Part shown: positions 24,801-30,800 of the stretch, piece by piece
Position numbering within the stretch: position 1 is the first letter of the stretch
Layout: each line of letters begins with the position of its first letter
Assembly: GCF_050920415.1 (NCBI RefSeq)
Contig: NZ_CP169309.1
DNA from: Escherichia coli
Lineage (GTDB): Bacteria; Pseudomonadota; Gammaproteobacteria; Enterobacterales; Enterobacteriaceae
DNA: 64,000 nucleotides
Direction: 5' to 3' (one strand)
Program-made: the position numbers

Positions 24801-27800
24801 ACCCTCGCCCAACCGGTTGAGGTGAATAACGAAGTCATTAACCATGTGCTGATCGCCTGTGCCGCCGCCGATGCGCGTCATGAGCTAAAAATATTTAGCT
24901 ATCTTGCCAGCGTATTGTGCCAGCATCCGGCAGAGGTTATTGCCGGGTTAACAGGATATGAGGCATTTATGGAGTTACTTCACAAGGGGTGAACTGTGTC
25001 GGATGCGCCGCATCCGACACTGCATTTATCACCAAAATCAAAAACATTTAACGCAGGCGATTATAATCATCGACCATTTCGTTGTACTCGCGTAACGCTC
25101 GCGGAAATGAGTCGTCGACCATCCAGCTTGTGTTTGCATCCTGAAGTTGCTCTTTATCCCAGTCAGAATACGGAACTTTATCTCTGACGCGGCGAACATA
25201 TTTTTTAGCCTCGAGTTGATACTGGTCTGCCGAATTAATGAACGAGAAATTCATACCGCCTTTATCCGCTTCTTTGGCCTGCGCCACCAGCGTTTCCAGT
25301 TCAGAGACTTTCTTCATTGCCGCATCAACATCAAACTTCTCTTGCGAAATCAGGTTATTAATTTGTTTCGCTGAAATCATGACTGCCAGGGAGTAGTAGT
25401 GGAATGTTTTTCCTTCTGTTTCTTCAATATTTTTCAGTTCCGCAAGCTGACGCTTATCGTTAATTTCCTGAATCGCCGCATGATAAGATTCTGCTACAGG
25501 TTCAAAGGCTTCAAGATTTTTTAAGAATGTCTGGTGCAGCGTTTTCCCTTTCGCAAACGCATCGTCTTTATAATTTTCCTGGGTGTAATATTTATCCATT
25601 TCGTTAATGGTATTACCCAACGCCACGGCAGCATCAATATAACTCACCGCCACGCCATCAATAGGTTGCAGCGCAGGCGTTAACGCCACAGCACTTTTTA
25701 CGCCTTTTTCACACTCAGCGAGGTTGGATTCACTAATACCGTAGATACCATAAACAGTACGCTCTTCACCGGTAGGGCCCTGTTTAAAATCTTTCAGCCA
25801 GTCAGCATAACGCGCCAGACTGCTCTGTACAGGAATCTGTAAGTTGTTGTAGCACTTGATATAGATATCCATTTTTTCGTCGAAAACCGCTTGTTCATCC
25901 ACCACCGGTTGCGCAGGTGTTTCAGGTTTAGCTTCTGCTTTTGCAACGGGAGCTTCAGTAGGTTTCGCTTCAGGAGCTAGTGCGGCAGGTTGACTATTGG
26001 CAGGCGGGGGCGTTTCTGTTTCGGTTTTTTTATCATCACAACCCGTGATACCGAGAGCCATGATGGCGGCTATAATAGCGGAAGATAATAAATTCCTTTT
26101 CATTTAATTGCCTTATAAATATATAGATAAGAGAGTAAACATAATAAAGGAAAAAAGAAAATGCCACTACACGCGTTTTGTTTATAAATAAAACGATAAA
26201 ATTCACGAAATGAATAAGTCCTGCAATTTAATATATATCGCAGGACTTATTTTAATTAATTACTCAAACGCTGCGGATGGGTATAAACCGTTGCCCGACC
26301 CGGCTTACAAAAGCCCACCAGCGTCAAATTACAGCGCTCAGCCACTTCTACGGCAAGCGTGGTCGCGGCAGACACCGCAAACAAAATTTCTACGCCGCAC
26401 ATCGCTGACTTTTGCACCATTTCATAACTGGCACGACTGGAAACCAGCACCGCACCTTGCTGCCAGCTTTCCCCTTCTTGTGACCGGCGGCCTAACAGTT
26501 TATCCAGCGCCACATGGCGACCCACGTCTTCATGCCCGCCTACCAGTTCGCCAGATGGCAACATCCAGGCAGCGGCGTGAGTACAACCAGTCAGTTGCCC
26601 CACTGGCTGGAAATCATTGAGATGGCGTAATGCATCATCCAGTTTGTTGAGATCAAATGTCTGAGTGAACGGCAGCGGCTGCACCGGTTTACCGATGTCA
26701 TTAAGTTGCTCCACGCCGCACACGCCACATCCCGTACGTCCCGCCAGTGCCCGACGACGCTCCTTCAACCCCATAAAGCGGCGGCTGGAAAGCTCAATTT
26801 GCACTTCCAGACCATTACAGGAAGGAACGACATCCATACCGAAGATATCGCGCGGACTTTCGATAATCCCCTCGGAAAGCGAAAAACCGAGCGCAAAGTA
26901 TTCAAGGTCTTTGGGCGACGCCATCATCACCACATGCGAAATGCCGTTGTAGACCAGCGCAACGGGAACCTCTTCCGCCACCTCATCTAACCGTGGGTGT
27001 TGTAAATCGTCACGCCGCCATAACTCAATTTGACGAACACCTGTGACATTTGTCACATTTTTGATTTCTTTTTGCTGTGTTTTTTTCACTTTCTATTAAC
27101 CGGATAAGAACACACACACCAACATTATGGTATTCTGTTACAAACCCTTCCTGGATGGAGGGAAATTGAGCCAATTCTGGACCTTTGCGGCCCCTTCCGC
27201 AAAGAAAAATAACTCCCACTCCCTGCACAAGCAGCAAGCGAATGTAAATGGGACGTGACAATGTCGAAACAAGGAGCAATCCATGCAGGTCAGCAGAAGG
27301 CAGTTCTTTAAGATCTGCGCTGGCGGTATGGCAGGCACCACGGCAGCGGCACTGGGTTTTGCACCCAGCGTAGCACTCGCGGAAACCCGGCAGTATAAAC
27401 TGCTGCGCACCCGCGAAACCCGTAATACCTGCACCTATTGTTCCGTAGGCTGTGGGCTGTTGATGTACAGCCTCGGTGACGGAGCAAAAAACGCCAAAGC
27501 ATCTATCTTCCATATCGAAGGTGACCCGGATCACCCGGTCAACCGCGGTGCACTTTGTCCGAAAGGCGCTGGCCTGGTGGATTTCATCCACTCCGAAAGC
27601 CGTCTGAAGTTTCCGGAATACCGTGCGCCAGGTTCTGATAAATGGCAGCAAATCAGTTGGGAAGAGGCGTTTGATCGCATTGCCAAACTGATGAAAGAAG
27701 ACCGCGATGCTAACTACATTGCGCAAAACGCCGAAGGCGTGACTGTTAACCGCTGGCTCTCCACCGGGATGCTGTGTGCTTCCGCGTCGAGTAACGAAAC

Positions 27801-30800
27801 CGGCTATTTAACGCAAAAATTCTCCCGCGCGCTGGGTATGCTCGCGGTCGACAACCAGGCGCGTGTCTGACACGGACCAACGGTAGCAAGTCTTGCTCCA
27901 ACATTTGGTCGCGGTGCGATGACCAACCACTGGGTCGACATCAAGAACGCCAACCTCGTCGTGGTGATGGGCGGTAACGCCGCTGAAGCTCACCCGGTCG
28001 GGTTCCGCTGGGCGATGGAAGCCAAAATTCACAACGGCGCGAAGCTGATTGTGATCGATCCTCGCTTTACGCGTACGGCGGCGGTGGCTGACTACTATGC
28101 CCCTATTCGTTCCGGTACTGACATTGCTTTCCTGTCAGGCGTATTGCTGTACCTGCTGAACAATGAAAAATTCAACCGCGAATACACCGAAGCCTATACC
28201 AACGCCAGCCTGATCGTGCGTGAGGATTACGGCTTTGAAGATGGCCTGTTCACCGGCTACGACGCGGAAAAACGCAAGTACGATAAATCCTCCTGGACTT
28301 ACGAACTGGACGAAAACGGCTTCGCCAAACGCGATACCACGCTGCAACATCCGCGCTGCGTGTGGAACTTGCTGAAACAGCACGTTTCCCGTTATACGCC
28401 AGATGTGGTTGAAAACATCTGTGGCACGCCGAAAGACGCGTTCCTGAAAGTCTGCGAATACATCGCCGAAACCAGTGCTCACGATAAAACTGCCTCGTTC
28501 CTTTACGCGCTCGGCTGGACGCAACACTCCGTTGGTGCGCAGAACATTCGTACGATGGCGATGATCCAGCTGCTGCTCGGCAATATGGGGATGGCAGGCG
28601 GCGGCGTTAACGCCCTGCGCGGTCACTCCAACATTCAGGGGCTGACGGACCTGGGGCTGCTGTCGCAGAGCCTGCCAGGTTACATGACGCTGCCAAGCGA
28701 GAAGCAGACCGATCTGCAAACCTACCTTGCCGCCAACACGCCGAAACCGCTGCTGGAAGGCCAGGTTAACTACTGGGGCAATTACCCGAAATTCTTCGTC
28801 TCCATGATGAAGGCCTTCTTTGGTGATAAAGCGACGGCAGAAAACAGCTGGGGCTTTGACTGGTTGCCGAAGTGGGATAAAGGCTACGACGTCCTGCAAT
28901 ACTTCGAGATGATGAAAGAGGGCAAGGTCAATGGCTATATCTGCCAGGGCTTTAACCCTGTTGCCTCATTCCCGAACAAAAACAAAGTGATCGGTTGTCT
29001 GTCGAAACTGAAGTTCCTCGTCACTATCGACCCGCTGAACACTGAAACCTCTAACTTCTGGCAGAACCACGGTGAGCTGAACGAAGTGGACTCGTCGAAG
29101 ATCCAGACCGAAGTGTTCCGTCTGCCATCGACCTGCTTCGCGGAAGAGAACGGTTCAATCGTTAACTCCGGTCGCTGGTTGCAGTGGCACTGGAAAGGTG
29201 CGGACGCCCCGGGGATTGCGCTGACTGATGGCGAGATCCTCTCCGGTATCTTCCTGCGCTTGCGCAAGATGTACGCCGAACAGGGTGGCGCGAACCCGGA
29301 CCAGGTGCTGAACATGACCTGGAACTACGCCATTCCGCATGAGCCGAAGTCGGAAGAAGTAGCGATGGAGAGCAACGGTAAGGCGCTGGCCGATATTACC
29401 GATCCGGCAACCGGTGCGGTTATCGTCAAGAAAGGCCAACAACTTAGCTCGTTCGCACAACTGCGCGATGACGGTACCACCTCCTGTGGCTGCTGGATTT
29501 TCGCCGGTAGCTGGACGCCAGAGGGCAACCAGATGGCACGCCGTGATAACGCCGATCCGTCTGGCCTCGGTAACACGCTGGGCTGGGCATGGGCATGGCC
29601 GCTTAACCGCCGCATTCTGTATAACCGCGCCTCCGCAGATCCGCAGGGTAACCCGTGGGATCCGAAGCGTCAGTTGCTGAAATGGGACGGCACTAAGTGG
29701 ACCGGCTGGGATATTCCGGACTACAGCGCAGCACCTCCGGGCAGTGGCGTCGGGCCGTTTATCATGCAGCAGGAAGGCATGGGGCGTCTGTTTGCCCTCG
29801 ATAAGATGGCGGAAGGTCCGTTCCCGGAACACTACGAGCCGTTTGAAACGCCGCTGGGAACTAACCCGCTGCATCCAAACGTTATCTCGAACCCGGCTGC
29901 ACGTATCTTTAAAGACGACGCCGAAGCATTGGGTAAAGCCGATAAGTTCCCGTATGTCGGAACCACCTATCGTCTGACCGAGCACTTCCACTACTGGACC
30001 AAACACGCGCTGTTGAACGCGATTTTGCAACCAGAGCAGTTTGTGGAAATCGGTGAGTCGCTGGCGAATAAACTTGGCATTGCCCAGGGCGATACCGTGA
30101 AAGTCTCCTCCAACCGTGGCTATATCAAAGCCAAAGCGGTGGTGACCAAACGTATTCGCACGCTGAAAGCGAATGGCAAAGATATCGATACCATCGGTAT
30201 TCCGATTCACTGGGGCTATGAAGGTGTTGCGAAAAAAGGCTTTATTGCCAATACGTTAACGCCATTCGTTGGTGATGCGAACACGCAGACGCCGGAGTTT
30301 AAATCCTTCCTTGTGAATGTGGAAAAGGTGTAACGGAGACGACATATGGCTTATCAATCTCAAGATATCATTCGTCGTTCCGCGACTAACGGTCTGACCC
30401 CCGCGCCTCAGGCGCGGGACTTCCAGGAAGAAGTGGCGAAACTCATCGACGTCACCACCTGTATCGGCTGTAAAGCCTGTCAGGTGGCGTGTTCAGAGTG
30501 GAACGACATTCGCGATACCGTCGGCAATAACATTGGGGTGTACGACAACCCCAATGATTTAAGCGCCAAATCGTGGACGGTAATGCGCTTCTCGGAAGTG
30601 GAGCAGAACGACAAACTGGAATGGCTGATCCGCAAAGACGGCTGTATGCACTGTTCCGATCCAGGCTGCCTGAAAGCGTGCCCGGCGGAAGGAGCAATTA
30701 TTCAGTATGCCAACGGTATCGTCGACTTCCAGTCCGAGCAGTGCATCGGCTGCGGTTATTGCATTGCGGGCTGTCCGTTCGACATTCCGCGCCTCAACCC

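Follow-up and report, generated by a model that had tools for sequence, protein, structure and literature searches.

The bacterial SECIS element that has been dissected by experiment is that of Escherichia coli fdhF. In the same species, fdoG has a paralogue, fdnG (b1474), which has the same architecture and carries selenocysteine (Sec) at residue 196. Formate dehydrogenase-N (FDH-N) is nitrate-induced and anaerobic, whereas formate dehydrogenase-O (FDH-O) is present aerobically as well. Full-length, selenium-containing FdoG of E. coli K-12 FDH-O has been reported in the older literature; the recoding of the fdoG UGA codon is textbook knowledge and in itself nothing new biologically. The contacts of elongation factor SelB have been assigned to the bulged U and the loop G-U of the fdhF stem-loop, 11 nt from the UGA (PMC8659212).

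Here, we describe an E. coli locus within a stretch of 64,000 nt (the window). We consider it practically certain that this locus is fdoG and that its UGA codon 196 is decoded as Sec, with a SECIS hairpin lying just 3′ of it; none of our observations spoke against this reading.

Results

A single open reading frame interrupted by UGA

The ORF list of the window contained two neighboring entries on the plus strand, 27283..27870 (195 aa, ATG start) and 27919..30333 (804 aa, with its own ATG at 27919). Their starts are 636 nt apart (212 × 3) and therefore lie in a common frame. Direct translation of 27283-30333 (+) yielded 1017 codons with a single internal stop, codon 196, besides the terminal stop; read from the raw sequence, the internal stop is the TGA at 27868-27870, and no frame change across it was found in this translation. 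The initial annotation had regarded the two ORFs as one frame broken only by this TGA and had counted 1016 codons, and it was right on both points: fdoG (27283..30333, +), encoding the catalytic (alpha) subunit of FDH-O, comprises 1016 codons, Sec196 among them, and then the stop, and a RefSeq CDS covers the same frame.

The protein domains run on across this codon as well. The two pieces map consecutively on the TIGR01553 profile (positions 1-194 and 196-1009) with 271 + 1278 bits, above the cut-off of 814. The Pfam architecture consists of PF04879, PF00384 and PF01568, of which the molybdopterin domain PF00384 is split by the TGA, with profile positions 1-67 in the N-terminal and 97-300 in the C-terminal piece; thus, the molybdopterin oxidoreductase architecture (Fe4S4, molybdopterin and dinucleotide-binding domains) is continuous across the UGA. 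In a structure search in which residue 196 of the query was entered as X, the FdnG structure 1KQF aligned end to end with FdoG (residues 1-1015), and the non-standard residue 196 of 1KQF coincided with this codon, as anticipated for a Sec at the equivalent position. UGA codon 196 (27868..27870, +) is an in-frame TGA that is common to K-12 fdoG and aligned with the Sec of 1KQF. Near the N terminus, residues 4-10 read S-R-R-Q-F-F-K (27292..27312, +), a Tat motif, and the N terminus of FdnG in 1KQF is the same as that of FdoG with this motif. A Tat-signal match to FdoG was not among the listed Pfam or NCBIfam matches; the motif together with established knowledge of FdnG/FdoG suggests that FdoG is exported by the Tat pathway.

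Identity and neighborhood of the gene

The gene and K-12 fdoG (b3894) are of equal length (3051 nt), share 98.2% DNA identity and both have TGA at codon 196. At the protein level, 1014 of 1016 residues are identical (99.8%), the substitutions being T483A and S689K, and 50 of the 54 nucleotide differences fall on third codon positions. These differences are ordinary strain variation. With FdnG, the protein shares just 77% identity.

The gene order fdhD <-> fdoG-fdoH-fdoI-fdhE corresponds to K-12 b3891-b3895, with fdhD divergent. The accessory sulfurtransferase gene fdhD (26256..27089, -) was identified by TIGR00129 (340 bits, cut-off 140.9), RefSeq and the K-12 arrangement. It is followed, on the other side of fdoG, by fdoH for the iron-sulfur (beta) subunit (30346..31248, +; TIGR01582, 478.7 bits, cut-off 334.7; RefSeq), fdoI for the cytochrome b556 (gamma) subunit (31245..31880, +; NF007924, 453.3 bits, cut-off 341) and fdhE for a formate dehydrogenase accessory protein (31877..32806, +; NF002925, 603 bits, cut-off 426; RefSeq). 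On the FdnI model NF007558 the gamma subunit reached 243.6 bits, under the cut-off of 339. The K-12 identity, the gene order and the FdoI-specific NCBIfam model all bear out the initial naming of the gene as fdoG. In its 5′ UTR, the Rfam family FdoG1_thermometer scored a sub-threshold 32 bits against 50, mostly from the conserved Shine-Dalgarno sequence and the first codons (local fold z = -0.94), and we do not count it as a feature.

RefSeq places one whole CDS at exactly 27283..30333 and names it “fdnG, formate dehydrogenase-N subunit alpha”; this label is the name of the family model and not a judgement on the locus. The two halves of fdoG also have public protein records of their own; that of the N-terminal half occurs on at least 1000 contigs, that of the C-terminal half on 196. 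Split 195-aa and 804-aa fragments of this gene number in the thousands in public databases, and some are wrongly named. The remark that automated callers split this gene is thereby substantiated; that they often split or truncate it stands for these database entries but not for NCBI PGAP, which keeps the gene whole and mislabels it. The only practical consequence of our analysis concerns annotation: one CDS of 1016 codons, a transl_except for Sec at 27868..27870, and the name fdoG.

A SECIS element directly downstream of the UGA

The covariance model of Rfam family RF01989 (SECIS_3) matched 27865..27923 (+) over its full length (model positions 1-59 of 59). The score of 84.3 bits (E 8e-20) exceeds the gathering score, which is 63, and the hairpin proper spans approximately 27871-27913. 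On RF01988 (SECIS_2, the fdhF type) the same element scored 28.1 bits, below the gathering score of 70. The element belongs to the fdnG/fdoG sequence family but, judged by analogy, would work like the SECIS of fdhF. The hairpin lies inside the coding sequence and begins 1-3 nt 3′ of the TGA at 27868-27870. Its minimum free energy of -13.8 kcal/mol over 27868-27915 does not stand out (z = -1.44, with 21 of 200 shuffles folding equally well), and because of this modest z we base the SECIS assignment on the covariance model together with covariation.

Drawn in the Rfam register, the lower helix of the window sequence contains A-C and A-G mismatches; the ViennaRNA MFE structure, whose register is offset by one, suits this sequence better. 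Across 68 homologous sequences, pairing in the two registers amounted to 86.6% vs 85.7%, with little covariation. As both score about equally, we leave the lower helix as lineage-dependent.

The apical stem-loop (27882..27899, +) is the putative SelB-binding part, defined by its pairing in the 68 sequences and by its fdhF-like positions. It consists of G-G, the bulged U27884, a 5-bp stem and the loop G27890-U27891-C27892. Counted from the U of the UGA, U27884 is U17, G27890 is G23 and U27891 is U24, the same numbering as in K-12 fdhF, and all three are invariant in the 68 distinct homologous sequences. This placement of the contact bases suggests that SelB binds the apical stem-loop of fdoG, too. 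The stem-loop noted after the TGA in the initial annotation can accordingly be accepted as a SECIS element, given an Rfam match above threshold, covariation across taxa and SelB-contact bases in the published positions.

Conservation and covariation

We scanned for homologues constrained only by the peptide D-N-Q-A-R-V-U-H-G. This gave 119 usable loci, nearly all from Proteobacteria, with 68 distinct 59-mers, mostly from Proteobacteria; all were ungapped, with the frame open past the TGA. It stayed open for at least 100 codons in 111 of the 119 loci and to the end of the available sequence in the other eight.

The apical helix is paired in 100% of the 68 distinct sequences, and compensatory changes were observed at three of its seven pairs (21-33, 22-32, 24-30), all at codon wobble positions. 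Overall, 92.5% of cells were paired, vs 26-49% when the partners were slid by 1-3 columns. Apical covariation comprised 39 cells where 9.7 were expected, a value reached by none of 500 shuffles in a control that ignores sequence relatedness. In the 68 sequences, two degenerate wobble sites did not vary: one is the G of ACG, a paired position at the foot of the apical helix, and the other is the loop U of AGU/GGU.

The longest identical run between fdoG and fdnG measures 71 nt, starts at 27865 and includes the whole SECIS; after the TGA, 18 of 18 degenerate codons are identical (p = 7e-5). Many enterobacterial genera share the identical 59-mer, which was found in 28 loci (17 FdoG-like, 9 FdnG-like); in E. 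coli it occurs 10,830 times across 5,425 genomes. Comparing the window with K-12 over 27860-27930 revealed 0 differences, which is uninformative on constraint because only ~1.3 were expected. The 59-nt core common to the 28 loci takes in unpaired positions and some 10 nt beyond the 3′ end of the hairpin. On this basis, and on that of the 71-nt fdoG-fdnG identity, one may ask whether constraint reaches beyond the minimal SelB-binding stem-loop, for example through an extra function of the flanks. We regard this as rather unlikely; if true, the flanks could modulate how SelB competes with the ribosome or release factor. Alternatively, recurrent gene conversion between fdoG and fdnG could account for the identity of the flanks.

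The genes required in trans are present at the species level: selAB, selC and selD were each detected in 5,424-5,425 of 5,426 complete E. coli genomes. In K-12 they map elsewhere, outside the region of the window, and tRNA genes were absent from the 64,000 nt of the window.

Discussion

Sec is probably inserted at position 196 of FdoG in this strain, by a route that studies of E. coli fdhF and fdnG allow us to sketch. The apical stem-loop, with its bulged U at +17 and the G-U at +23/+24, would bind the C-terminal domain of elongation factor SelB, which would carry Sec-tRNA(Sec), the product of SelA and SelD acting on the selC tRNA. The ternary complex would be tethered at the ribosome as the UGA reaches the A site, and selenocysteine would go in instead of chain termination by release factor 2. 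Sec196 would then become a ligand of the molybdenum center, as in FdnG (1KQF). The product would be the catalytic subunit of FDH-O, a respiratory enzyme; this subunit would contain molybdenum and be exported by the Tat pathway.

That the gene might instead be fdnG, the nitrate-inducible FDH-N alpha gene, is what the RefSeq/PGAP name of the CDS says, and the best NCBIfam model, TIGR01553, bears the FDH-N alpha name as well. However, the protein is 99.8% identical to K-12 FdoG vs 77% to K-12 FdnG, its neighbors are fdhD, fdoH, fdoI and fdhE and not yddG, fdnHI and yddM, the gamma subunit scores above the cut-off of the FdoI model and below that of the FdnI model, and the true fdnG occupies a second, separate place in each genome. 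Identity and synteny thus refute the label, and we consider this reading highly improbable. Still more improbable, to the point of being negligible, is a TGA that acts as a true stop in a split or decayed gene making proteins of 195 and 804 aa. Many gene callers do report the locus in this form, both fragments exist as public protein records, and the downstream one opens with an ATG of its own (27919). However, K-12 fdoG, fdnG and 119 loci, almost all of them proteobacterial, have the TGA at the same codon, a SECIS with covariation lies directly 3′ of it, and it is spanned by a Pfam domain as well as an NCBIfam profile. Residues 197-212, which are conserved in 1KQF, would also be missing, and gene decay would not leave 50 of the 54 differences from K-12 at third codon positions.

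If, on the other hand, the UGA were read without the Sec system, for example by a near-cognate Trp or Cys tRNA or a suppressor tRNA, the hairpin would only slow the ribosome. Low-level, SECIS-dependent read-through without selenium is described for fdhF, according to a reference cited in PMC8659212. Three points argue against such a role in fdoG: what is conserved is precisely the set of SelB-contact bases, at their precise spacing; the sel genes belong to the E. coli core genome; and the solved structure of FdnG has selenocysteine at the corresponding position. Read-through of this kind would be a minor side reaction at most, and as the explanation of the fdoG UGA it is very improbable.

K-12 fdoG is identical base for base in the SECIS region and has the same neighbors. 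Its paralogue fdnG differs from fdoG in overall sequence (77% aa and 75% nt identity) and in its locus, yddG-fdnGHI-yddM, with other partner subunits. The SECIS of fdhF resembles that of fdoG in its position directly after the UGA, in the first 8 nt after the UGA, which are the same, and in G15-G16, the bulged U17 and G23-U24-C25-U26, which occur at the same numbers; the SelB-binding mode is presumably the same. Differences are found in the apical stem, which is AGCAA/UUGCU with a 3-nt loop in fdoG (5 nt if the closing A-U is open) and UGCA/UGCA with a 4-nt loop in fdhF, in the sequence of the lower helix, and in the host gene, as fdhF encodes the cytoplasmic FDH-H of 715 aa with Sec at 140. 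More distantly, the alpha subunit of Desulfovibrio vulgaris FdhAB (8CM4, 6SDR) is a full-length homologue of FdoG (residues 1-1016, E 1e-279 to 1e-280); it belongs to a W/Mo formate dehydrogenase that its depositors call selenocysteine-containing and represents a distant orthologue, although FdhAB, unlike the FdoG enzyme, is a soluble periplasmic enzyme of two subunits.

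Reading frame and gene identity

The gene fdoG, which encodes the alpha subunit of formate dehydrogenase-O, occupies 27283-30333 on the plus strand and appears in the ORF list as two entries on that strand, an N-terminal ORF of 195 aa (27283..27870) and a C-terminal ORF of 804 aa (27919..30333). Their starts lie 636 nt apart, so both share a common frame. Translation of 27283-30333 gives 1017 codons with a sole internal stop, codon 196, which is TGA in the raw sequence (27868-27870); the ATG at 27919 corresponds to Met213 of the full-length protein. The initial annotation had proposed one frame of 1016 codons, broken by the TGA alone, and was exact on the frame and correct on the count. 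The two pieces match consecutive positions of the TIGR01553 profile (1-194 and 196-1009), and the TGA splits the Pfam Molybdopterin domain in two. Alignment to 1KQF, the solved structure of the formate dehydrogenase-N paralogue FdnG, spans residues 1 to 1015 and places its non-standard residue 196 on the TGA codon; TGA is likewise codon 196 in K-12 fdoG, bearing out the predicted equivalence of the selenocysteine position. A twin-arginine motif, SRRQFFK, was read from the translation at the N terminus.

The window is E. coli chromosome, differing from RefSeq NZ_CP169399.1 at 4 of 64,000 bases, none of them close to fdoG (4992570-4995620 in that record). The gene equals K-12 fdoG (b3894) in length and shares 98.2% DNA identity with it; 50 of the 54 differences fall at third codon positions, and the protein, with two residue changes (T483A and S689K), is 99.8% identical. 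FdnG shares 77% identity with the window protein. The K-12 fdo neighbours are present (fdhD divergent upstream; fdoH, fdoI and fdhE downstream), and the gamma subunit scores 453 bits with the FdoI-specific NCBIfam model, above its cut-off of 341, and 244 bits with the FdnI model, below the cut-off of 339. Near-identity to K-12 FdoG, gene order and the FdoI-type gamma subunit therefore make the name fdoG right; identity and synteny rule out that the gene is fdnG.

Elsewhere in the window, going by the genes annotated in the near-identical RefSeq record, a transposase gene (34509-35423, minus strand) lies between yiiE and fabY and adjoins a hypothetical gene that is truncated and marked as a pseudogene (35436-36323, minus strand); together, 34509-36323 is probably a strain-specific insertion-sequence remnant. 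The genes rhaM and frvA flank a "carbohydrate porin" gene (18405-19799, minus strand), and yihR and yihQ, within the sulfoquinovose catabolism cluster, flank a gene for a TauE/SafE sulfite exporter (45742-46617, plus strand); the porin and exporter genes are presumably absent from those positions in K-12.

Split gene calls and naming

As the initial annotation had anticipated, gene callers often split fdoG, and exact look-ups in public collections found each half as a protein in its own right. The 195-aa piece (27283-27867) occurs in at least 1000 contigs and its cluster has 3,382 members; the 804-aa piece (27919-30330) occurs in 196 contigs, with 6,687 cluster members. Some relatives of the 195-aa fragment (Cronobacter malonaticus, Hafnia alvei) were deposited as "sulfate ABC transporter substrate-binding protein"; here a truncated piece of a selenoprotein carries a misannotation that has been propagated. 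NCBI PGAP copes with the recoding and calls one CDS (27283..30333), labelled "fdnG, formate dehydrogenase-N subunit alpha" despite the adjoining fdoH and fdoI. Every match listed among 5,433 records carries the same label. It stands at the fdo locus because the family model TIGR01553 bears that name, and seems to be a naming artefact that this model produces systematically.

The SECIS element and its conservation

A SECIS hairpin had been predicted to follow the TGA, and this was confirmed by covariance model and covariation. The segment 27868-27915 folds as a hairpin of -13.8 kcal/mol (ViennaRNA), an energy that alone is not exceptional (z = -1.44). The Rfam model SECIS_3 (RF01989) matches 27865-27923 over its full length with 84.3 bits (gathering score 63, E 8e-20). 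In the lower helix (27871-27880 with 27905-27913) the E. coli-type pairing runs one position off the Rfam consensus, with G27911 bulged; the Rfam register leaves A-C and A-G mismatches there.

Overall, fdoG and fdnG share 75% DNA identity, and their longest identical run, 71 nt (27865-27935), reaches beyond the hairpin into the codons downstream. After the TGA, 18 of 18 degenerate codons are the same in both genes vs 59% gene-wide (p = 7e-5). In a scan of 100,044 species genomes, the identical 59-mer was found in at least 28 loci, 17 nearer FdoG and 9 nearer FdnG, with Yersinia, Providencia, Photorhabdus, Citrobacter, Enterobacter, Klebsiella, Moellerella, Mixta and others among the matches listed. 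Among 5,426 complete E. coli genomes, 5,425 carry the 59-mer, at 10,830 places in total (median two per genome); in the remaining one the fdoG/fdnG region was not found. Seven of the about 10,830 places are on plasmid-classed records, and some genomes have three. At sequence level, conservation of the 71-nt run and 59-nt core exceeds the need of a minimal SECIS, for which an extended RNA constraint or gene conversion may be responsible.

The scan pattern fixed only the peptide D-N-Q-A-R-V-U-H-G, leaving columns 12-59, most of the element, free, and matched at least 120 loci. Among the matches listed, 119 loci with the full 59 nt gave 68 distinct sequences in an ungapped alignment (A1); the frame stays open for at least 100 codons beyond the TGA in 111 of them and to the locus end in the other 8. 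They came from alpha-, beta- and gamma-Proteobacteria plus one Geomesophilobacter and one Terriglobia genome. In A1 every cell of the apical helix is paired (100%), and three of the helix's seven pairs changed on both sides: 21-33 (G-C/A-U/G-U), 22-32 (G-C/U-G) and 24-30 (A-U/C-G/G-C). Column 22 excepted, the covarying columns are third codon positions of the conserved peptide. Pairing over the whole structure is 92.5%, vs 26-49% with partners slid by 1-3 columns, and none of 500 shuffles reached the observed covariation score (the slid control allows for relatedness, the shuffles do not). Two degenerate wobble sites are invariant: the G of Thr codon ACG, pairing at the base of the apical helix, and the U of AGU/GGU, which is loop U24. 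Pairing in the lower helix is weaker, at about 86%, and this helix covaries little; the Rfam and shifted registers fit the 68 sequences equally well, and the register is lineage-dependent.

Outside Proteobacteria, Geomesophilobacter sediminis and the Terriglobia MAG have the same peptide context with a SECIS_3-like hairpin, and their apical stems carry compensatory changes. This occurrence is consistent with fdoGHI-sel clusters spreading horizontally, as discussed previously (PMC8124441).

Alternative readings and mechanism

Conservation of the TGA, the SECIS behind it and the domains spanning it rule out a genuine stop. Selenocysteine-independent read-through of UGA196 would be at most a minor side reaction beside recoding. 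Upstream, 27114-27312 matches the Rfam family "FdoG-1 5' UTR thermometer" (RF02778) below threshold (32.2 bits, gathering 50, E 2e-5), the score coming mostly from the conserved Shine-Dalgarno and first 12 codons; with the 5' half poorly aligned and an unremarkable local fold (z = -0.94), a functional E. coli FdoG thermometer is unsupported.

The observation and interpretation of the initial annotation are both correct, and their value is limited to annotating the gene correctly, as a single CDS with transl_except Sec and the name fdoG. No tRNA gene lies within the 64-kb window, and the sel genes are located elsewhere in K-12. Complete E. coli genomes contain selAB in 5,425, selC in 5,424 and selD in 5,425 of 5,426 cases, and this species-wide presence suggests that the window's own strain has them too.

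With frame, identity, SECIS and covariation demonstrated, the steps of recoding can be modelled on established fdhF and fdnG work. SelB carrying Sec-tRNA(Sec) would bind the apical stem-loop and, with UGA196 in the A site, deliver selenocysteine, outcompeting release factor 2; Sec196 would then serve as molybdenum ligand of the bis-MGD cofactor, as in 1KQF.

The fdoG UGA is a textbook recoding site, already described, in an ordinary E. coli strain. The fdhF-type model SECIS_2 gave the fdoG element 28 bits, with 70 required. In fdhF, a 17-nt stem-loop is set 11 nt away from the UGA; U17 bulges out, G23/U24 lie in the loop, and SelB contacts U17 and G23 (PMC8659212). Numbered from the U of UGA, the fdoG element has G15-G16, a bulged U17 (27884, plus strand), a 5-bp stem and a loop that includes G23-U24 (27890-27891, plus strand), and K-12 fdhF has G15-G16, U17 and G23-U24 at the same numbered positions.
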